The notes beneath the pieces were generated by a model. The model was not told the origin of the DNA and did not search any database. It saw only the letters and a program-made list of their open reading frames with translations. From IMG/VR virus record IMGVR_UViG_2695420714_000022: 15,467 nt of DNA; one strand, given 5' to 3'. Positions 515 to 11,497 of the stretch are shown one piece after another (the stretch's first letter is position 1; every line of letters starts with the position of its first letter). Both the position numbers and the translations under genes were made by a program. This DNA is from a virus (taxonomy: Duplodnaviria > Heunggongvirae > Uroviricota > Caudoviricetes).

Positions 515-763
515 ATGCGTGTTGAGATCTGTATCGCTAAAGAAAAAATCACTAAAATGCCAAACGGTGCTGTGGATGCGTTAAAGGAAGAATTAACCCG
601 ACGCATCAGTAAACGTTATGACGATGTAGAGGTGATCGTAAAAGCCACCAGCAACGATGGCCTTTCTGTTACGCGCACCGCCGATAAAGATTCAGCTAAA
701 ACTTTTGTTCAGGAGACTCTGAAAGATACCTGGAAGTCTGCTGACGAGTGGTTTTTTCACTAA
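515..763 (+). CDS. DinI-family DNA-damage-inducible protein (RecA modulator)
   Basis: 82 aa. MRVEICIAK...GAVDAL..ELTRRI...LSV...[15 protein letters not shown] is colinear with E. coli DinI as I remember it (MRIEV.IAK..GAIDAL..ELSRRI..LSV..QETWESADDWF). Strong AGGAGG RBS and a LexA box upstream. Confidence 0.85.
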
Positions 764-1035
764 TTAACACGTAAAATCGGTAACGGCTGGAAATCATTCA
801 ATACTCGCACTATCGAAAGTTCGCCAGCCAGCCGTGGCACGTTCTTGCATACGATGTGCTACGGTTTCATTCATCTCCGACCGGAAACTTCTTATACAAA
901 GTCGATACGCCAACATCATAGATGATCACCACCTTCTGGCGAGAAACTCCTGATGCAATTTGTCGTCCGGCCTGTGCCTATTGCTCCGGCGTGAGAGTAA
1001 TACAGTAAACTGTAGAAAAAGCCCATTAAACCTAA

Positions 1036-1041
1036 TATAAT
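1036..1041 (+). promoter_or_regulatory. Candidate -10 hexamer (TATAAT) for the acyltransferase moron
   Basis: Exact TATAAT about 40 bp upstream of the ATG at 1080; no good -35, and a palindrome (1001-1014) overlaps the -35 region. Confidence 0.3.
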
Positions 1042-1079
1042 AATAAGTTACAGAATTATCTTTACTGAATAATAGATAT

Positions 1080-1625
1080 ATGAATATTAGTGAACTTAAA
1101 AAGTGTATACACTATGAAGTAATAGGTTGTAAACGCCCTTTCTCCTGGCGAAAAGCAATTGTTCGCGCAATAAAACACAGAAGATCACGTTATTTATTTT
1201 GGTGGCGCATAGCAAAATATCTTTTTGATAAAGGCGGATACCGGCGAAAGATTGCAGGAAAAATAGAACGCTTCATTCTTGACAAATACAATGTAACCGT
1301 TCCCTTAACTGTAAATATTGGTAAAGGGTTCGACATATCTTATCTCAATGGCGTTGTTATCGGTCACAAAGTTACAATAGGTGAAAATTGTTCAATTAAG
1401 CCTGGGGTAACTATTGGACTTCGCGGTGAATTTAATGATATGGATATTGTCATAGGAAATAATGTAACCATTGGCTGTAACGCCACCATCCTTGGTGGCA
1501 AAGTGCATATAGGGAATAATGTAAAAATAGGAGCTCATGCATTGGTACTGCATGACATTCCTGATGACTCCACATTCATTACCAAATTTCACTCTGAAAT
1601 TATTTATAATTCATCTCACACATAA
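1080..1625 (+). CDS. Hexapeptide-repeat (left-handed beta-helix) acyltransferase; polysaccharide O-acetyltransferase-like
   Basis: 181 aa. Basic N-terminal segment with a WW motif (RRSRYLFWWRIAKYLF), followed by tandem hexapeptide repeats (VVIGHKVTIGENCSIKPGVTIG ... IVIGNNVTIGCNATILGGKVHIGNNVKIGAHALV). Architecture resembles WcaF/NodL/maltose-type acetyltransferases. The gene is AT-rich by eye compared with the flanking phage genes and has no obvious SD. Confidence 0.75.
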   Translation: MNISELKKCIHYEVIGCKRPFSWRKAIVRAIKHRRSRYLFWWRIAKYLFDKGGYRRKIAGKIERFILDKYNVTVPLTVNIGKGFDISYLNGVVIGHKVTIGENCSIKPGVTIGLRGEFNDMDIVIGNNVTIGCNATILGGKVHIGNNVKIGAHALVLHDIPDDSTFITKFHSEIIYNSSHT

Positions 1626-1635
1626 TTCCGTTTAA

Positions 1636-2208
1636 TCACAGCTCAGGCCATACGATATCCGGGGCTGTATTTATATCAATCCGACTCACTAATACCCGGT
1701 ATTTTTTCCAGGAAGATAGCATCGAAACCTCCTCATCAGTTGCCATTTCAAAATTAACAGCATCCTGCAGAATTGTTATGTTATCAGTCGCTTCCTGGAT
1801 TAATCTTGTCTTTTTCTCTTCCGCCTCCCGGATCCGGAAGAGTTTTTCTGCTTCCGTATCCTTCACCCAGGCTGTGCCGTTCCACTTCTGAAACTCCCCT
1901 TCCGGCGATAACCAGGTAACATTTTCCGGTAACGGACCGAGTTCCGAAATAAATAACGCGTCGCCGGAAGCCACGTCATAGACGGTTTTTCCCCGATGGT
2001 CTTCAACGAGATGCCACGATGCCTCATCACTGTTGAAAACAGCCACGAAGCCAGCCGGAATATCTGGCGGTGCAATATCGGTACTGTTTGCTGGCAGACC
2101 TGTATGAGGCGGAATATATGCGTCACCTTCACCAATAAATTCATTAGTTCCGGCCAGCAGATTATAAATTTTTATGGTCCGTGGTTGTTCAGTCATTCTA
2201 AAATCCAT
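1636..2208 (-). CDS. tfa: Tail fibre assembly protein (Tfa chaperone)
   Basis: [48 protein letters not shown]... matches lambda Tfa from memory. ATG at 2208 is preceded by GAGGTG; the ORF track starts two codons earlier at a GTG (2214). Confidence 0.9.
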
Positions 2209-2216
2209 GTTCACCT

Positions 2217-3107
2217 CTACTTAATATCAGAGACAGAATATTGTTTATTGAGCGTATGGGTGGGAGCACCAATAACGATGCTACTTCCGTGGCTATGTGC
2301 GCCAGAGGTGAGATTGCCTACGGGATTTTCTGGATTAAACCGGTGTGTATGCGAATCAGGGCGAGAGCGATTATTAGTCAGCACGTCATCAGCCTGATGC
2401 ACATGGCTAATACAGAACTGCCCGGAACGTGAGCAATACGTCCGATAATCGCCGCATCCAATATATTTAGTATCCGCATAACGGCAAACAGAATTACCCG
2501 GACAGTATGCATATGTGCCAAATACTGCCGACTGGCGGGATTGTGCGTATTCCCAGTTAATTGATTCTGTTTTTTTATTAAAGTTATCCCATGCCTGCTT
2601 CATCTGCCGGGCAACACTTTCAAACGGCACCTGACCACATCCGGCTCCCATTGCAGGGAATACCACAGTTTTTATTTTCCTGTCTGTCGTTGCGTGTTTA
2701 TTGTGCTGAAAGATGGCAAGCAGAGCGGCCCAGGTTGCGTTATATACAGCGTCTGTTCCGTCAATTGTCAGCGGAACACGCATTGTTGGCGCATGTACCA
2801 GCCAGGGGTGATGATTATGCCCCGTTTCAATTACAAATGCAGAACCTACAGGCTGTTCGCCTAAATATTCACGAAGAATATGATTCTGAACGCGGGACTG
2901 TAACTGAGTACCGAAGAATGCGGTAATGGCGGCATCAACGCCGCCATCCATCAGGCCGAAACTATTTGCCGCACTTACCATGCAGTCAAATTCTCTGATT
3001 GTTTCAAATGGCTTTCCGACAATATTCACATTATCTGCGTTTGCAAATACCCGCTTAAATGCTTCCGCCATTTCTGTTACTGGTGCAGAAAGAATGAGCG
3101 TAATCAT
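2217..3107 (-). CDS. Macro-domain (ADP-ribose binding/hydrolase-like) protein with Cys/His-rich C-terminal tail, inserted between stf and tfa
   Basis: 296 aa. Start ATG overlaps the stf stop (ATGA) and is preceded by GAGG; stop TAG at 2217-2219 lies 9 bp upstream of the tfa ATG. The N-terminal ~200 aa carry the MacroD-type signature N-x6-GG-V-D ([17 protein letters not shown]) and a second Gly-rich loop ([14 protein letters not shown]). The C-terminal ~100 aa have five Cys and HxH motifs (SHTH, AHSH). Confidence 0.75.
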
Positions 3108-6079
3108 GCAAGCCTCACAATATAGTTAAATGCGATGTTTTTGACGGTGTTTTCCGCGTTACCAGCAGCGTTAACGGTGATGGTGTGTCCATGTGAACCA
3201 ATCGCAACAGAGTGCGTATGAGCGCCAATACCAACTGTATGTGCATGCGCCCCTGCACTTGCAGCAGTGCCTGATACTGAGTGGGTGTGTGCACCAGAAG
3301 AAGGCACTGTTCCATTCCCCACGATCGTGCCACTTGATGAACCATCAAGCCAGTCGAAATTCATACCGCCACTGTTTGGTCTCCTTAATGGAACGGTATG
3401 AGTATGTGCGCCAGCACTATTTGCAGTACCAGATACATTGTGGGTATGTGCACCAGTGTTATTCGTGGATTTAGTGCCGTAATCAAAAGATGATGTGGTT
3501 TTCGTCCCCAAATCCGTACTGGATGCGCTGGCGCTGTGGGTGTGCGATTTAATGCCGTCCTGTTCCTGAGACAATACGGCCCGGCCACTGGCGGGTTTGC
3601 CCTTGATTGTCCAGCCGCGCATATCTGGAATAACACCTGAAGGATAGGCAATAGCCAGTTTCGGATATGCTGCCTTATCAAACGTCTGCCCCTGCATGAT
3701 TGCATAACCTGCAGGTGGTGTATCTGATGGCCACGGCAGCGGAACACCTGGCGGAAACGCTTCAATATTTGCCGAGCCGTCAAATTTTACGCCGTTAATT
3801 GTCCTTGCAGTTTGCAATTTGGTTGCTGTGCTTGCATTACCCGATAAAGATCCAGTGATACCACCACTCGCGTTTAATTTAGTTGCAATTGTAACATTGC
3901 CAGTATGGTTACTAATTATAAACGGCCTTAAGCTATTGTGCGTACCAAGACTGTTACCCGAATCTGTCAACATAAAATATGTGTTTGATCCATCATTTCG
4001 GATAAAGAATCCATAGTTGCCATAGGCAATACGCAGACCATTTGCTGACCTTGAAATAACCTCACCAGCAGCAGTTAAACCACCTGAAAGAGTCCCTCCA
4101 GTTAATGCCAATGCCCCAATATTTGAAGGGGTCAATGTGATATTTGCACTACCATCAAATGACACACCGTTAATCGTTCTGGCTGCCTGAAGTTTCGTGG
4201 CGGTCGCAGCATTACCTGTAGTGTTTTGATTACCGGTAGCGTTGACTCCAGGCAAGTTGATATCTGCCGATCCATCAAATGCCACGCCCCCAATCTTACG
4301 TGCTGTCTTGATCTTGGTCGCAGTATCTGCGTTTCCGGTCAAATTACCAGTAACACTACCACCAACTTTTAGTCCATTACCGATGGACACCAACCCTGAT
4401 CTTAAGTTTATAGAGAATGGTCTTAATGAACCGATGTCTCCATTTTCCCCCTCCCCTTCATTAGTCGGAATAAGATGAAGATGATCTTCGGAACGCCTAA
4501 AAATAAGGCCAAAGGCTTGGTTGAATATTCGAAGAGCATTTATCGTGCTGATTTTTAACTGCCCTCCCATTGTGTCGCCAGTTTTTTGAACTGAACTATC
4601 TTTAACAGTTTTAACTGCCTTTGGCGTTGCCGCCAGCTTTTCACTGGTGCTGTTTGTTGCACTGCTGAGCTGTACTATCCCCTTTTTCGTCGTGCTCGCA
4701 TCCTCCAGCGCCACGGCGGATGCAATATCCTCTGCCCGTTTTGCTGCTGTCTCGGCGCGCGTTGCCGCGGATTCAGCAGCAACTTTGCTCTGAGATGCAG
4801 CCGTCGCACTGCCTGCTGCCTCTGATGCTTTCGTTGTTGCTGTCGTGGCACTACCTTTCGCTGCTGACGCTTGTCTGGTCGCCTCATCTTTTGAAGCAGA
4901 CGCAGATGATGCCGATGACGCCGCTGAACTGGCTGACGATGCGGCTGCCGCCTTAGAGGAAGCAGCATTGTCTGCTGAAGTCTTTGCATTTGTTTCAGAG
5001 GTTTTTGCTGCAGAAGCAGACCTCGCTGCTGCAGTGGCTTGCTCAGTGGCTTTGCCAGCCTTCGTTGTGGCTGTTGAAGCGGATGATGCGGCGCTTTCTG
5101 CCGATTTTCCGGCGGCGGTGGCACTGGCTGAGGCCTGCCCGGCACTTGTTGACGCGGCACTGGCAGATAATGCAGCCGCTGTTTTTGAACCTGCCGCAGC
5201 TGAGGCGCTCTGTCCCGCTGCTGTTTCAGAAGACTTAGCGTTCGTCTCGGACGTTTTTGCCGCCTTCGCGGAATTTCCTGCCGCCGTTGCCGAGGAAGCT
5301 GCACTACTGGCACTTGATGATGCATTCGTTTCTGAAGATTTCGCTGCCTCTTTTGAGGCCGCCGCACCCCGTGCCGAGGTGGCAGCTTCTGACGCCTTCG
5401 TGGTCGCTGTGGATGCAGAAGTGGCTGCCGATTTTTGTGATGCTGCGGCATTCGTTTCTGACGTTTTCGCGGCACTGGCGCTGGTAGCTGCCGCGCTTTT
5501 TGATGACTCTGCAGCAGCAGCACTTTTTGCTGCTTCACGGGCCTTTGTCGATGCCGTTCCTGCGCTGGAAGACGCTGACTGAGCCGACGACGCGGCCTGT
5601 CCGGCTGACGTGCTGGCGGCACGTGCTGAGGCTGCAGCATCGGTTGCATGAGTTGCCGCCTCGCTGGCTGATGCACTGGCATCGCTGGCTGATTTTTTCG
5701 CGGCTGCCGTATTCTGTGCAACCGCGGAGGCGTTACGTGACACCTCTTCCACCATCTGCTCAAAGCGGCGCAGTGCCTCCGGTCGGACATCATCCTCCGT
5801 CATGGCACCGAGAAAATCATTCAGCGTACCTGGTCTGGAACCTTCATAGACGGTAATGGTCCCGGCATGTGAAGGCGGAAAACCTTCAACCAGCAGGGTG
5901 ACGCTGTACTGGCCATGCTCAACATCCATGCTGTAACGTCCGGCTTCATCCGGATTTTCAGAGGCCACCGTGTTCACCACCACCGTGCTGCTGGTTCGTC
6001 TGGCCTTCAGCACAATGGTGCAGTTCTGTACTGGTTTTCCTGTGCCATCTTTAAGCACGCCAGAAATTTTTACTGTCAT
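3104..6079 (-). CDS. stf: Side tail fibre protein (Stf), mosaic
   Basis: 991 aa. N-terminus [22 protein letters not shown]... and C-terminus ...[40 protein letters not shown] match lambda Stf from memory. Contains a long Ala/Ser-rich low-complexity segment and a central module with three ~30-aa tail-fibre repeats. Confidence 0.9.
3779..4345 (-). repeat. Three in-frame coding repeats (~90 bp each) inside stf
   Basis: Protein repeats [29 protein letters not shown] / [29 protein letters not shown] / [29 protein letters not shown]; the corresponding DNA repeats are visible near 4255-4345, 4138-4216 and 3779-3850. Confidence 0.7.
4760..5720 (-). repeat. Ala/Ser/Thr-rich low-complexity coding region of stf (approximate bounds)
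   Basis: Roughly 320 aa dominated by A, S, T and K with recurring AAKTSETNA / SASSAASSA units. The GC-rich repetitive DNA generates long spurious ORFs in other frames on both strands. Confidence 0.8.
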
Positions 6080-6092
6080 ACTTTTCCACCAA

Positions 6093-6125
6093 TAAAAAAA
6101 GCCCGCAGCAGTGACGCCACGGGCT
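6093..6125 (-). terminator. Candidate rho-independent terminator after lom
   Basis: Stem AGCCCG (6100-6105) / CGGGCT (6120-6125) with a 14-nt loop; on the minus strand it is followed by a run of seven T (complement of 6093-6099). Confidence 0.45.
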
Positions 6126-6230
6126 TCAGGACAGTGTAACTTTACGTTTCCTCAAACGCAGTTCACCCCATAAGGTGGATGAACCTGCGTATCATAACAA
6201 TATTTACAGAAGATAAATCGGCGTCTGTTG

Positions 6231-6830
6231 TCAGAAACGGTATCCGATACCAACAATAAATGCATCCGTTCGCCAGTCGCCACTACCGGAACCTTCATAA
6301 GCAAGGTCAATGGCCACGGATTCTGTCGGGTTAAACTGCACGCCAGCCCCCCACGCCAGAGACGTGTTGCTGTGGCGACCGTCATCACTTCCGGTCAGCA
6401 CGTCGTGCGTTTTCCCCTTGTTGTCAGTTACGCGGAGATAATCCCCGGAGAAAGTCGACACACGGCTGTAAGCCATACCCGCCATCACATACGCGCTGAA
6501 CCATTCATTCACGCGCACAGACGGCCCCGCCATCACGCTGAACCAGCGGTTACGCACGGAATCTTCATGCCAGCGGGTATCGCTGTAGTGCGTTTTTTGC
6601 TCATCCTCAGCATTGGCATAACTGAAGGACGTAATCAGCCCCAGCGCGTCCGTAAACTCATAACGGTATTTCACGTTAATCCCGTTCAGATTATCGCTGC
6701 CGGGAGCGTTCGTACGGGCATGAAGATACCCCGCGCTCAGTGTGGACTGATATTCAGACGCCCATGCAGGCGCACCGGATACGGACAGACAGATGGCTGC
6801 GGACAAAATGGCTGCACAAACTTTACGCAT
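6231..6830 (-). CDS. lom: Ail/Lom-family outer membrane beta-barrel protein
   Basis: 199 aa. Signal peptide MRKVCAAILSAAICLSVSGAPAWA and C-terminal ...GIGYRF; near-identical to lambda Lom from memory. GAGG RBS 7 nt upstream. Confidence 0.9.
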   Translation of the reverse strand: MRKVCAAILSAAICLSVSGAPAWASEYQSTLSAGYLHARTNAPGSDNLNGINVKYRYEFTDALGLITSFSYANAEDEQKTHYSDTRWHEDSVRNRWFSVMAGPSVRVNEWFSAYVMAGMAYSRVSTFSGDYLRVTDNKGKTHDVLTGSDDGRHSNTSLAWGAGVQFNPTESVAIDLAYEGSGSGDWRTDAFIVGIGYRF

Positions 6831-6851
6831 AATTACCTCTCGCTTTTCTGC

Positions 6852-6878
6852 AATAAAAAAGGCGCCATTTCTGGCGCC
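6852..6878 (-). terminator. Candidate rho-independent terminator between J and lom
   Basis: Stem GGCGCCA (6861-6867) / TGGCGCC (6872-6878) with 4-nt loop; on the minus strand followed by TTTTTTATTG. Confidence 0.55.
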
Positions 6879-6897
6879 CGTATATGGGTTATAAAAT

Positions 6898-9800
6898 TCA
6901 GCTGATACTGATGCCTGCGGTGGCTTTCTTCATCACCACAACCAGCAAATCGCTGATACATGCTGTGGGATACCAGTTATTCACCAGCCATGCTGACACC
7001 GAAAACTCCAGCGTCATGTGACCGTGACCGGCAGGCATATCAATAACACCACTGTAAATCAGCGTATTATCCAGCGCGGTACGGTTATAAATTTCAGCAC
7101 CGTTTTTCCGCACTATCAGACGGCATGAGGAGTAAATATCAGTATGCTCTTTCTCATGTTTAGCGCCGCTGAATGCCACCGCCGGAATAACAATCTGCCG
7201 GTCAAACGGCTGATCGTCATAAACCCTGACGGTAATGGTCCCTGATGGCCACCGCTCCGGTGCACGGGAGTCCCGGGGGAAAGCTTTGCCCACTGTTTTA
7301 ACGAGATCGCCTTCAATCTGGTTGGCGGACAATTTTCCCAGAACCCGACAGTTCTCGTTAATCGTGACGTTGTTGAGCGTCCCGGAGTTCGCATTCACGT
7401 TACCGCTGATATCGGCATTTTTCGCCGTCAGCCGCCCGTCCGGTGTCAGGGAAAATGCCGGAGGATTACCGCCGCTGGTAATGGTCGGAGCTGTCAGGCG
7501 TTTCAGGAACACGTCGTTCATGAATATCTGATCGCCCTGACCAACAAACATCGGCTTTGTGTTGCCATTCGCAGGATTAATCATCGCAATCCGGTCAGCA
7601 GCCAGAAGCACCTGACTCTGCATACCTGCTGGCGTATTCCCAATACCGGCTCCGATACCCGCAATATAAAGGCGTCCGTCCTTCATCTGCTGCAGTTTCA
7701 CGGCCCACATGCTGTTCAGGTTATTATTTGTATCAACCTGAACTTTCTGTATCTGCTGGATTGCCGCACTCTGGTCTTCCAGTTTTTTATTGACGGTCTG
7801 CGTGATTTCATTGCTGACATTCGTAATGGACGTCCTGATTTCAGCCAGGTCCGGCGCAAGCTGACCGTTATCAATCTGCGTCCACAACTCCTGGGCCAGA
7901 TGTGTTTTCCCGATTTCTCCTTTGAAAAAATCCAGGTAACCTTCCGCATCATCGCTCGCCCGACCGACAGCCTCCACGAATGCCGATTTGCCAACGGTGT
8001 TCACACTGCGAACGTAAAAATAATAATCATGGCCCGGTTTGATATTGATACTGGCGGCTATCCAGTACAGCGCCGTACCAAGATAGCGGGCTGTGGTTTC
8101 AACCTGCCTGATATCGGTAATCCGCTTTTCCGAGAACCAGAACTCAAACTGTACCGTCGGGTCATAAACAGCAAGATGCGGCGTGGCGGTTATCTGAAAA
8201 TAGCCCGGCGTCAGCTCAATCCTCGACGGTGCTGCCGGTGCGGCAATCCGGAACGATACCGACGCCGGATCGCCCTGCTGCCCCCGGGCATTTACCGCCC
8301 GGACTGTCAGCCTGTAGTTCCCCAGCGCCAGTTGCGTGAAGCGGTATGTGGTTTCCGTCGTCCGGGCCGTGCTGACCAGTCGCTCACTGCCGTCGTCCGC
8401 TGTTACGGTCAGACGGAGCAGGAAGCTCACGCCCTTCACCACCTTCGGTGTGTCCCATCGCGCCAGCACCTGATATTCCCCGCTGTCTGCAGTGACTTCG
8501 GCGGTCAGGTGCTGCACTGCTGGCGGCGTGACACCATTCACCGTGCCGCTCTGGTCACCGTCAAAGTGCGCCCCGTTATCCACGATGGCTTCTTTCTCCG
8601 GTACATGCTGCACGGCGGTGATGGCATACGTGCCGTCATCGTTCTCACGGATACTCACGCAGCGGAACAGGCGCTGGCGCAGCGTCGGCAGCTTCAGCCC
8701 CCACACGCTGTATTCTGCAACGCCGTCAGGAACACGGCTCACTTTCACCTTCACGCCGTCGGTGACGGACTGGACCTCCACGCTGACCGGATTACCCTGA
8801 CCGTCAACCAGGCTTATCAGCGTGGTACCGGAGGATGGCAGCGTGATTTCACGGTCGAGCGTCAGCGTCCGGGTCTGGCTGTTCACCGCCAGCACGCGCC
8901 CGCCGGTGCTGATACCCGCATAGTCATCATCGCAGATTTCAATGACATCCCCCGGTACATGGCGAAGCCCTTCCGCACCCACGCTGAAGTCCACGGTCTG
9001 CGTTTCCAGCAGTTCCGTTTTAATCAGCCACAGCCCGGCGCGGTGCGCCTGCCCCCGGCTGGTACAGCCAAAGGCATCCATCTTCGTGACGTTACGACCG
9101 TAACGGGCAATGGCCTGCGTATCTTCAACAAGCTCTGTCGCCGTCTCCCAGCCGTTATCCGGGTCAATCCAGTTCACCTCAACGGCATTATGACGGTCCT
9201 TCAGGGCACTGAAGCTGTAGCGGAACGGCGCGCCATCATCCGGCATCACCACATTACTGCGGTTATAGGTCCACACCTTATCCGACGGTCGGTCCTGCAC
9301 GAACGTCAGCGTCTGCCCGTTCCATACCGGCATACAGCGCATCGCCGAGCAGAAATCACTGAGAACATCCCACGCCTTGCGCTGTGTGGTCAGGTAGGCA
9401 TTACAGGTGATGCGCGGCTCCGTGCCACCAAAGCCATCCGGCACCGACTGGTCGCAATTCTGGCCGATGACATACAGCGCCCATTTGTCCACATCCGCCG
9501 CACCGAGACGCTTCCCCATGCCGTAGCGCGGATGGGTCAGCATATCCCACAGACACCAGGCCATGTTGTTGCTGTATGCTGGCTTAAACGTTCCGTCCCA
9601 GATACCGCTGTATTGCCGCGTCTGCGGGTTATAGTTCGACGGCACCTGCAGAATGCGCCCGCGAAGATGATAATTACGGCTCACCTGCTGGCTGCCGAAC
9701 TGTTCCGAGTCCACCTGCACGCCGACCAGTGCCGTGTTCGGGTAGCCCTGTTTCACATCGATGATTTCGGTGTATGACGACCAGAGCGTTTTGTTCTGCA

Positions 9801-10443: not shown

Positions 10444-10782
10444 TTATTTACATGCATTAACACTATCAGCAAAAATTTTTGGCGTTAATGCTGGTACACG
10501 TTCATAAAGAGTAAAACTACTGCCATTTCCTGCTTTTTTGATATCAAGCACAACATCATATCCCCCCATAGCCTGTGGAACTAAAAGGCTTACCCCATTC
10601 TCAATAGGAAGGGATGTTATAGGTGTTCCATTACCAGCCCATTGTCTGGATATGCAGCCTGACAATTCATCAATATTTTTTAATGAATTACCTTCCATTA
10701 CAGGTTTTCCGGATTTTACGTAATCCAAAGATTTACATCCTGTTAAGGCAATAATCGTGCAGAATAAAATCGTTTTGTTCAT
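10444..10782 (-). CDS. Small secreted lipoprotein; moron inserted between I and J
   Basis: The second Met of the ORF gives MNKTILFCTIIALTGC, a textbook signal peptide with lipobox L-T-G-C. Mature protein is about 95 aa with two more Cys. The ~480-bp I-J gap is AT-rich by eye, unlike the flanking tail genes; RBS is weak. Confidence 0.6.
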   Translation of the reverse strand: MNKTILFCTIIALTGCKSLDYVKSGKPVMEGNSLKNIDELSGCISRQWAGNGTPITSLPIENGVSLLVPQAMGGYDVVLDIKKAGNGSSFTLYERVPALTPKIFADSVNACK

Positions 10783-10855
10783 ATAGCTAACCAATAGAAT
10801 AATTATCAGTGTTCGATATAAATATTAAATTAGTTAGAACATGAGTAAAATAATA

Positions 10856-11497
10856 TTACCGCCCAATTACCACAACCTGACCACCATCCCCTTCATCTGC
10901 CGTGCTAATCTCCTGAGATGCCACACGTGACCCCACGCGCATTTCACCGTACAGAACAGGCAGGACATTGCCCTGGGCAACCATGTTATCCAGTGAGGAG
11001 AAATAGGTGTTCTGTTTGCCGTTATCCGTTGTCTGTGTACGGGGAGTTCTGGCTTTCGGTGCCAGCATCTGCGCCACACCACCAAGCGTCATCGCCGCAC
11101 CCATTGAAAAGAGAATGTCACTGAAAGCGATACTGATCCCCGGCATCCAGATTGCCGTAGCAATCAACGCCGCACCCAGCACCGCCTGAAACACACCGCC
11201 ACTTTTTGCTCCCGCAAGACGCGGCACGATGTGGATCACGGCACCATTTGCCAGCGGCTCATTAAGACGGGATGATAATTCGGTTTCTCCTGCATCCCGC
11301 CCGGCAATCCGTACCTGATACCAGCCATCGCTCAGTTTCTGACGAAACGCCGGGAGCTGTGTGGCCAGTGCCCGGATGGCTTCAGCCCCCGTTTTCACAC
11401 GAAGGTCGATGCGGCGGCCAAATCGTTGCAAATCCCCGTAAAGGCAGATGCGTGCCATTCCCGGTGACGCCAGAGGGAGTGTGTGCGTCGCTGCCAT
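10856..11497 (-). CDS. I: Tail assembly protein I
   Basis: 213 aa. MAATHTLPLASPGMARICLYGDLQRFGRRIDLRVKTGAEAIRALATQLPAF... and C-terminus ...ISTADEGDGGQVVVIGR are lambda I-like from memory. Overlaps the 3' end of K. Confidence 0.85.
   Translation of the reverse strand: MAATHTLPLASPGMARICLYGDLQRFGRRIDLRVKTGAEAIRALATQLPAFRQKLSDGWYQVRIAGRDAGETELSSRLNEPLANGAVIHIVPRLAGAKSGGVFQAVLGAALIATAIWMPGISIAFSDILFSMGAAMTLGGVAQMLAPKARTPRTQTTDNGKQNTYFSSLDNMVAQGNVLPVLYGEMRVGSRVASQEISTADEGDGGQVVVIGR

Follow-up and report, generated by a model that had tools for sequence, protein, structure and literature searches.

The window analyzed here is a stretch of 15,467 nt from a virus of the class Caudoviricetes (IMG/VR record IMGVR_UViG_2695420714_000022), taken at its full length. 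It contains one end of an E. coli prophage, and close to this end lies a gene for a 181-aa protein of the acyltransferase fold. The open reading frame (ORF) of this gene occupies positions 1080–1625 on the plus strand, from ATG to TAA, and begins 790 bp from the junction between the prophage and the chromosomal gene mlrA. In the encoded protein, a basic N-domain of four helices (residues 3–69) is followed by a predicted left-handed beta-helix (residues ~71–165). The ORF is preceded by an AT-rich leader (1006–1079, plus strand) and followed by tfa, the tail fibre assembly (chaperone) gene (1636–2214, minus strand; Caudo_TAP 130 bits, PHROG 105). The two genes are convergent, and exactly 10 nt (1626–1635) separate their stop codons. 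An earlier note, made from the letters of the sequence alone, had proposed a hexapeptide-repeat acyltransferase gene at 1001–1635, lower in GC than the tail genes, convergent with tfa and situated at the prophage end. The 181-aa hexapeptide-repeat ORF, the convergence with 10 bp between the stops, the low GC and the terminal position (mlrA junction at 289/290) all stand. The proposed span does contain the ORF, along with 79 bp of leader and the 10-bp spacer.

The ORF is a real and constrained gene. Its product matches the Pfam family Hexapep (PF00132) with 50.6 bits, against a cut-off of 27, and carries nine [LIV]-G-x4 hexapeptide repeats at residues 80–155. The profile of PHROG 2154 matches residues 1–180 at its positions 4–184 of 185 (259.4 bits, E = 2.8e-77). 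In a set of 5.8 billion proteins, 758 homologues are found with E ≤ 1e-5. The ratio dN/dS (Nei–Gojobori) is 0.12 against the allele of P1-like phage-plasmids and 0.07 against the allele of phage 613R2. The RefSeq protein WP_001026781.1, named "serine acetyltransferase", differs from the protein of the window at one residue. The GC content is 36.3% in the ORF (GC3 28.6%) and 28% in the leader (987–1079), compared with 46.6% in tfa, 51.8% in the side tail fibre gene stf, 56.8% in J and 52.7% in the whole window.

A promoter scan of the leader found a sigma-70-like site, TAGAAA-17-TATAAT, at 1013–1041, with 10 of 12 positions matching. No clear Shine–Dalgarno sequence precedes the ATG at 1080. 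Between the acetyltransferase gene and tfa, no convincing intrinsic terminator was found, and the spacer itself contains no convincing bidirectional one. A weak hairpin (z −1.9) is present within tfa, and a terminator-like site is present on the minus strand within the acetyltransferase ORF. Tandem repeats of the kind involved in NeuO-style phase variation were sought in 900–1700, and none was found.

By profile hidden Markov models (HMMs), by BLASTP and by predicted fold, the 181-aa protein is CysE/WcaB-like, with a modelled left-handed beta-helix. The best NCBIfam models are EpsC (85.1 bits; cut-off 150) and CysE TIGR01172 (76.9 bits; cut-off 210.65). The WcaB models score 60.4 bits (cut-off 196) and 59.4 bits (cut-off 194.65), and the equivalog cut-off is not reached. 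PRK11132, also for CysE, scores 52.9 bits (cut-off 397). The models of LacA (34.2 bits; cut-off 347), the maltose O-acetyltransferase Maa (29.6; 314), WcaF (24.3; 192) and the xenobiotic and streptogramin acetyltransferases (22–29; 300–475) score lower. The identity to WcaB of E. coli K-12 is 31% over 150 aa (E = 4e-17), and that to K-12 WcaF is 18% (E = 3e-4). When the protein was searched against the sequences of the Protein Data Bank (PDB), serine acetyltransferases were on top (E = 1.5e-13).

The AlphaFold2 (AF2) model is a monomer built with a 66-sequence alignment, and its mean predicted local distance difference test score (pLDDT) is 91.3. It replaces an earlier run with a 24-sequence alignment, in which the pLDDT was 64 and the beta-helix was unreliable. 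Foldseek search of the model against PDB gave 85 matches at E ≤ 1e-3. The best 50 are all CysE, with TMq of 0.61–0.77, and these 50 include no chain of the WcaF, NodL, LacA or maltose type. In the viral fold database BFVD, every TM-score is below 0.42. Proteins of the CysE/WcaB fold are usually trimeric. The model, the fold matches and the genomic context support the earlier view of an independently oriented moron with a left-handed beta-helix acyltransferase fold. The subfamily suggested at that time, WcaF/NodL/maltose, has to be given up: the HMM classification ranks EpsC, CysE and WcaB first, and the fold matches are to CysE.

The N-terminal 70 residues contain 20 Lys or Arg, with a pI of 10.6. 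F21, W23, W41, W42, R24, K25 and R29 are conserved in this domain. The earlier note had compared a basic segment with two tryptophans here to WcaF and NodL. The basic stretch and W41–W42 are real, but the kinship is not: the W41-W42-R43 helix is the counterpart of the "YRIGHWLW" helix of CysE, W41–W42 matching its "HWLW" part, and the likeness to "LWW" of WcaF is superficial. No membrane segment was found in the protein, where the maximum 19-residue Kyte–Doolittle mean is 1.04; with no hydrophobic segment, the protein must act in the cytoplasm. The protein shows no match to Pfam Acyl_transf_3, and none of the PADLOC 2.0 defence models matches it at E ≤ 0.01 (0 families).

In CysE of E. coli, Asp143 and His158 form the catalytic dyad, and Asp92, Asp157, Arg192 and His193 hold the substrate; His193 lies opposite His158 and forms a hydrogen bond with the acceptor hydroxyl from that side (PMC8786284). 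Every one of these six residues is replaced in the phage protein: Asp143 corresponds to Thr73, His158 to Tyr88, Asp92 to Arg19, Asp157 to Ser87, Arg192 to Met121, and His193 to Asp122. The phage protein is ~90 residues shorter than CysE at the N-terminus and has no SATase_N region. It also lacks the C-terminal Ile tail that binds CysK, ending instead with ...NSSHT. Cysteine-regulon context was not found at the locus, which is a prophage edge with no cysK linkage. The closest non-phage relatives (33–38% identity) are short serine acetyltransferases encoded directly after a cysK-type gene. Two true short serine acetyltransferases, P0044 and P0059, follow such a gene (PALP). The residues at the positions of Asp143, Asp157, His158, Arg192 and His193, the five that were compared in short serine acetyltransferases, are E-D-H-R-H in 60 of 80 more distant homologues. 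Judged from these residues, the phage protein is not a serine acetyltransferase and is predicted to make no O-acetylserine. Because the serine-site residues are replaced and the scores are far below the curated cut-offs, the name "serine acetyltransferase" is misleading. The earlier note had named assignment to a housekeeping class with chromosomal synteny as a finding that would count against it. CysE is indeed the nearest class by fold, but chromosomal synteny is absent, and none of the serine-site residues is kept.

The replacement of the dyad is unexpected within the wider family. The general-base position is His in 122 of 126 cluster representatives, and the Asp143 position is Asp or Glu in 87 of them. 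Among 34 close relatives, 19 have Asp or Glu at 73 with His88, and the other 15 combine Tyr88 with Thr, Lys or Val at 73. The latter set takes in the gene of the window, relatives of Hafnia phage yong2, and metagenomic sequences down to 53% identity. In a neighbour-joining tree, the Tyr88 sequences are a single clade nested inside the His-bearing family, which points to one concerted loss of the dyad. Of the 15 Tyr88 sequences, 13 have Asp at position 122, the counterpart of CysE His193; one has His there and one a gap. The His88 sister clade has Met, Leu, Gln, Lys or Asn at this position. Glycines and small residues of the beta-helix coils (G101, G109, G113, G132, G140, G145, G151 and A152), which line the coenzyme A (CoA) site, are kept. 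The strong purifying selection, the intact coil glycines and Asp122 suggest that the active site of the Tyr88 subclade may be rewired instead of dead. Since the dyad is replaced by Thr73–Tyr88, catalysis, if retained, needs either a rewired site or an acceptor that requires no strong base, such as an amine.

The protein belongs to PHROG 2154, a phage protein family of no known function. This family is phage-restricted and travels with tail-fibre chaperone cassettes. Relatives at 43–100% identity are seen in Escherichia, Citrobacter, Salmonella, Kosakonia, Pseudocitrobacter, Enterobacter, Hafnia and others. The gene is present in 91 of 5426 complete E. coli genomes, including that of enterotoxigenic E. 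coli (ETEC) H10407. The E. coli copies are at 65 chromosomal places and, in 27 cases, on plasmids of ~90–370 kb (P1-like phage-plasmids). Every family context examined is a moron slot at a phage edge. The gene is convergent with tfa in ETEC H10407, P1-like plasmids, Hafnia phage yong2, Citrobacter phage phiNP, 613R2, JL22 and a Salmonella prophage. In P2-like phages and prophages a homologue directly follows the integrase gene, and one homologue is at the outer end of a P2-like prophage. In phiNP, the DinI-like gene is outermost, followed by hicAB and then the acetyltransferase homologue.

Among 78 IMG/VR loci with an intact ORF, many of which are near-duplicates of each other, 57 carry tfa on the other strand, at a distance of −37 to +29 bp. 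These 57 loci include at least eight acetyltransferase lineages (36–100% identity) and several types of tfa. The 10-bp gap is shared by 12 close viral loci and also by L062/L063, whose homologue is 52% identical. Wherever measured, the GC content of the gene is below that of its surroundings, except at one P2-like phage locus (L005). Leader, gene and tfa (1006–2208) are one contiguous block with ~85% nucleotide identity to the P1-like phage-plasmids L003/L034 and phage 613R2 (L008). The homology of the block with these copies starts at 1006–1012, 1–7 bp before the −35 hexamer. These alignments indicate that leader, gene and tfa are exchanged as a unit between lambdoid prophages and P1-like phage-plasmids.

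Two loci show the gene in other arrangements. In phage JL22 (L009, a P1-like phage-plasmid), a 37%-identical homologue lies between two convergent chaperone genes, in the cin-invertible C segment (773–8140). Because it is in the middle of this segment, its orientation would flip with host-range switching. In Salmonella enterica strain s1 (L011/L103), a homologue lies amid tail-fibre fragments, 750 bp downstream of a same-strand gene for a 512-aa GtrC-family membrane protein (5710–7248 of L103; PF19528, STM0557-type). The two genes may be a composite surface-modification module.

The prophage of the window is integrated in mlrA (yehV). The 5′ end of mlrA is at 1–289 on the plus strand, and the junction is at 289/290. 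The sequence of this end is present in all 5426 complete E. coli genomes at 99–100%, and the same occupied junction is present in 475 of them. The interrupted ORF reads MALYTIGEVALLCDINPVTLRA and then stops, being cut after 22 codons. The mlrA product is a MerR-type activator of csgD and curli. Close copies of the block of acetyltransferase gene and tfa are found in prophages at another site, adjoining prfC (ETEC H10407 and strain GDSC2239PM). This prfC-side site was considered for the prophage of the window and was ruled out by the integration in mlrA.

From the junction inward, the order is the DinI-like gene, the pin remnant, the leader, the acetyltransferase gene, tfa, a macro-domain gene, the gene for a 991-aa side tail fibre, Lom, J, and the remaining lambda-like tail genes. 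The DinI-like gene (515–763, plus strand; Pfam DinI 67.7 bits) is outermost in the prophage. The next feature (868–995, minus strand) is the 3′ remnant of a gene for a Pin-type tail-fibre DNA invertase, with ~39–42 codons of its helix-turn-helix (HTH) part. In strain WS0115A, the 3′ end of pinE together with the DNA downstream of it matches positions 766–995 with 88% identity. The NCBI Prokaryotic Genome Annotation Pipeline (PGAP) marks the stretch as an HTH pseudogene with an internal stop. The canonical order elsewhere is fibre, tfa, inverted tfa′ with fibre tip, and then pin. The window lacks both the alternative cassette and two-thirds of pin, its 5′ part, and the acetyltransferase gene is in their place. 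The pin remnant thus marks the former site of an invertible tail-fibre segment. With the alternative cassette absent and the Pin/Cin-type invertase reduced to a remnant, the fibre has lost the ability to switch. At 989–1002, a perfect 14-bp palindrome, TACAGTAAACTGTA, marks the join of the pin remnant (ending at 995) and the block (starting at 1006). It could serve as an operator, be a Pin crossover site or a scar left by recombination, or have arisen by chance, and it is outside the exchanged block 1006–2208.

The macro-domain gene (2217–3107, minus strand) lies between the side tail fibre gene and tfa. It encodes 296 aa with an ADP-ribose-binding or hydrolase domain, matching Pfam Macro with 68 bits at residues 44–169 and PHROG 2613; a weak DarG-like match is also seen. 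Its start overlaps the stop of the fibre gene (ATGA, 3104–3107), so it is part of the tail-fibre operon. Of the 5426 E. coli genomes, 128 have it, and the 12 records listed show it overlapping or directly adjoining a tail-fibre or tail gene. A link between the macro-domain gene and the acetyltransferase through O-acetyl-ADP-ribose was considered and rejected: the listed records that bear the block mostly have no adjoining annotated macro gene, and only H1 and H2 have one. A second island of low GC (0.375–0.40) is at 10444–10794 on the minus strand, between J and a tail-assembly gene (10856–11497). Its ORF encodes 112–116 aa, has a lipoprotein-like signal, MNKTILFCTIIALTGC, and shows no Pfam match. 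It may be a further moron, such as one for a superinfection-exclusion lipoprotein.

What could the acyltransferase-fold protein do? The reading favoured here, at rather less than even confidence, is a cytoplasmic acyltransferase expressed in the lysogen and acting on a precursor of an envelope glycan with a rewired active site. The gene is a prophage moron: a low-GC cassette, complete in itself, on the outer margin of the tail-fibre module. It is probably transcribed in the lysogen from its own promoter on the strand opposite the late genes. The product is a soluble and strongly basic CysE/WcaB-fold protein of the phage-specific family PHROG 2154, and it would bind acetyl-CoA or another acyl-CoA as the putative donor. 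The acceptor could be a cytoplasm-facing precursor of a conserved envelope glycan: a nucleotide sugar, an undecaprenyl-pyrophosphate-linked repeat unit, or core-lipid A. A candidate base is Asp122, which at the position of CysE His193 would be on the other side of the acceptor nucleophile. The modification would change the surface seen by phages or by the host, which would amount to lysogenic conversion or receptor masking.

Four points lead us to favour a glycan acceptor. The closest characterized non-CysE relative is WcaB, which has the site composition of the sister clade. The N-domain is rich in conserved aromatic and basic residues, which fits a sugar-phosphate or membrane-proximal acceptor. 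In Salmonella, a gene of the GtrC family neighbours the homologue. Finally, NeuO is a precedent. In addition, fibres of the Tfa-dependent class use the lipopolysaccharide (LPS) core. In phage phiNP, a carrier of a homologue, the receptor of the tail fibre is GlcII of this core (PMC6456863). From context, O-acetylation of a surface polysaccharide by the phage protein is plausible.

Comparison with known systems shows both the basis and the limits of this reading. WcaB, the colanic-acid O-acetyltransferase (E. coli K-12 b2058), is likewise a short CysE-like beta-helix protein of 160–180 aa with no SATase_N, and like the phage family it lacks the serine-binding Asp157, Arg192 and His193. It differs in keeping a Glu–His dyad, as the sister clade does, where the phage protein has Thr73–Tyr88. 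Its gene is in the wca polysaccharide operon and not in a phage moron, and the conserved N-terminal motif C9/E13/F21-S-W23-R-K is specific to the phage family. CysE (EC 2.3.1.30) shares the helical N-domain packed on a left-handed beta-helix and gives the best fold and sequence matches, although its catalytic dyad and its serine/cysteine-site residues are all replaced in the phage protein. NeuO, the K1 polysialic-acid O-acetyltransferase of E. coli prophage CUS-3, is a soluble beta-helix enzyme that modifies a surface glycan (PMC3046976). It is thus a functional precedent for a prophage-borne acetyltransferase of this fold, but it has the catalytic His, and the phage gene has no phase-variation repeat tract. 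The PDB sequence search at E ≤ 0.01 returned no NeuO chain; the sole polysialate O-acetyltransferase listed is 2wlc (residues 119–167, E = 1e-3). Oac, OafA and GtrC of serotype-converting phages share the ecological role of the phage protein, and their prophage-edge positions are of the same kind. They are polytopic membrane proteins acting on the periplasmic side, whereas the phage protein has no hydrophobic segment.

Several facts weigh against a glycan-modifying enzyme. The general-base His of the superfamily is Tyr in the phage protein, which may impair or alter O-acetyl transfer. In Hafnia phage yong2 itself, residue 122 is Asn, and the idea of a relocated base therefore does not hold universally. 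Strains of many serotypes carry the gene, as do broad-host-range P1-like plasmids, which disfavours a single O-antigen or capsule as the target. No family member is inside a polysaccharide gene cluster, all contexts examined being phage edges. That the gene adjoins tfa may mean no more than that the late operon ends in a slot permissive for insertions. The promoter at 1013–1041 is a consensus match only. The literature yields annotation-level mentions and no experiment on the acetyltransferase family (PMC6456863, PMC9603915). One of these two papers says that it is unknown why the gene is there, and PMC9603915 puzzled over a role in cysteine synthesis. The Gifsy defence gene gipd474 was considered and rejected, as it encodes an unrelated ATPase-domain protein.

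A bolder proposal can be made with low confidence. The Tyr88 subclade could be a working enzyme that has no His base, either because the base has moved to Asp122 or because the enzyme now uses another acceptor, such as an amino sugar or an LPS-core precursor. The linkage with tfa would then be a host-range cassette, in which a fibre chaperone is combined with an enzyme masking the receptor of that very fibre in the lysogen.

Among the alternatives, an acyltransferase with a non-glycan acceptor is possible, though distinctly less probable than the glycan reading. Such an enzyme would modify a small metabolite, an antibiotic or other xenobiotic, a protein or a nucleic acid, and would serve as a lysogen fitness, anti-phage or counter-defence factor. 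The family is found in P2-like and lambdoid hot spots of defence genes; an HNH gene adjoins the homologue after the integrase gene at L010 and L068, and a DUF4760 gene adjoins it at L012. The very basic N-domain, the distribution independent of serotype and the loss of the His base, which fits an amine or other acceptor, are in line with this. However, neither the PADLOC models nor the xenobiotic and streptogramin acetyltransferase models (22–29 bits against 300–475) recognize the protein, no conserved partner gene adjoins it, and its closest characterized non-CysE relative, WcaB, is a glycan enzyme.

It is also conceivable, but unlikely, that the Tyr88 subclade is a pseudoenzyme. It would have lost acyl transfer and been kept for binding or regulation, by sequestering acetyl-CoA or a glycan precursor or by interfering with a host beta-helix enzyme. 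Both dyad members were lost together in one monophyletic subclade nested in a family with Asp/Glu–His, and the protein is nevertheless under strong purifying selection. The conserved coils and small residues of the CoA site speak for activity instead, as does a potential base (Asp or His) at 122 in most Tyr88 members. The Ile tail by which CysE binds CysK is also missing. Besides, beta-helix N-acetyltransferases of the QdtC/WlbB class work without a general-base His, their acceptor being an amine. Two chains of this class, 3fs8 and 3mqg, are weak PDB sequence matches to the phage protein (E = 2e-5 to 4e-4). The similarity is marginal, QdtC and WlbB have other N-terminal domains, and the present evidence does not indicate an amino-sugar acceptor.

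It is highly improbable that the protein is a genuine serine O-acetyltransferase, the name it has in RefSeq and GenBank, encoded by an auxiliary metabolic gene that boosts cysteine synthesis. CysE and EpsC are the best HMM and fold matches, and the nearest non-phage relatives are the short serine acetyltransferases adjoining cysK; but the scores (77–85 bits) stay below cut-offs of 150–210, all six CysE residues are replaced, and the SATase_N domain, the CysK-binding tail and the cysK linkage are absent. Least probable of all is an O-acetyltransferase of the WcaF/NodL/LacA/maltose type: the "WW" in a basic N-terminal stretch of the phage protein aligns with the "LWW" of WcaF, but the HMM scores of 24–34 bits against cut-offs of 192–347, the lower identity to WcaF than to WcaB and the top-50 fold matches all go against it.

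The gene itself is already known. It is in RefSeq, in GenBank phage records and in PHROGs, and it is listed with no explanation in the two papers cited above (PMC6456863, PMC9603915). Its kind, a prophage-borne beta-helix acyltransferase moron, is also familiar. What is new is the corrected annotation, the placing of the gene in a phage-restricted family which travels along with cassettes of tail-fibre chaperones, and the replacement of the dyad under constraint in the Tyr88 subclade. The gene carries the name "serine acetyltransferase" everywhere, and the correction follows from the loss of the serine site and from the phage-only family. The concerted loss of the Asp/Glu–His dyad under strong purifying selection is a natural experiment on how beta-helix acyltransferases achieve catalysis. 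Demonstration of the rewired site or of receptor masking would add to the interest of the gene. If the product indeed modifies a conserved envelope glycan, it would be a new factor of lysogenic conversion or receptor masking, and this modification would bear on serotyping, on the host range in phage therapy and on the ecology of P1-plasmids.

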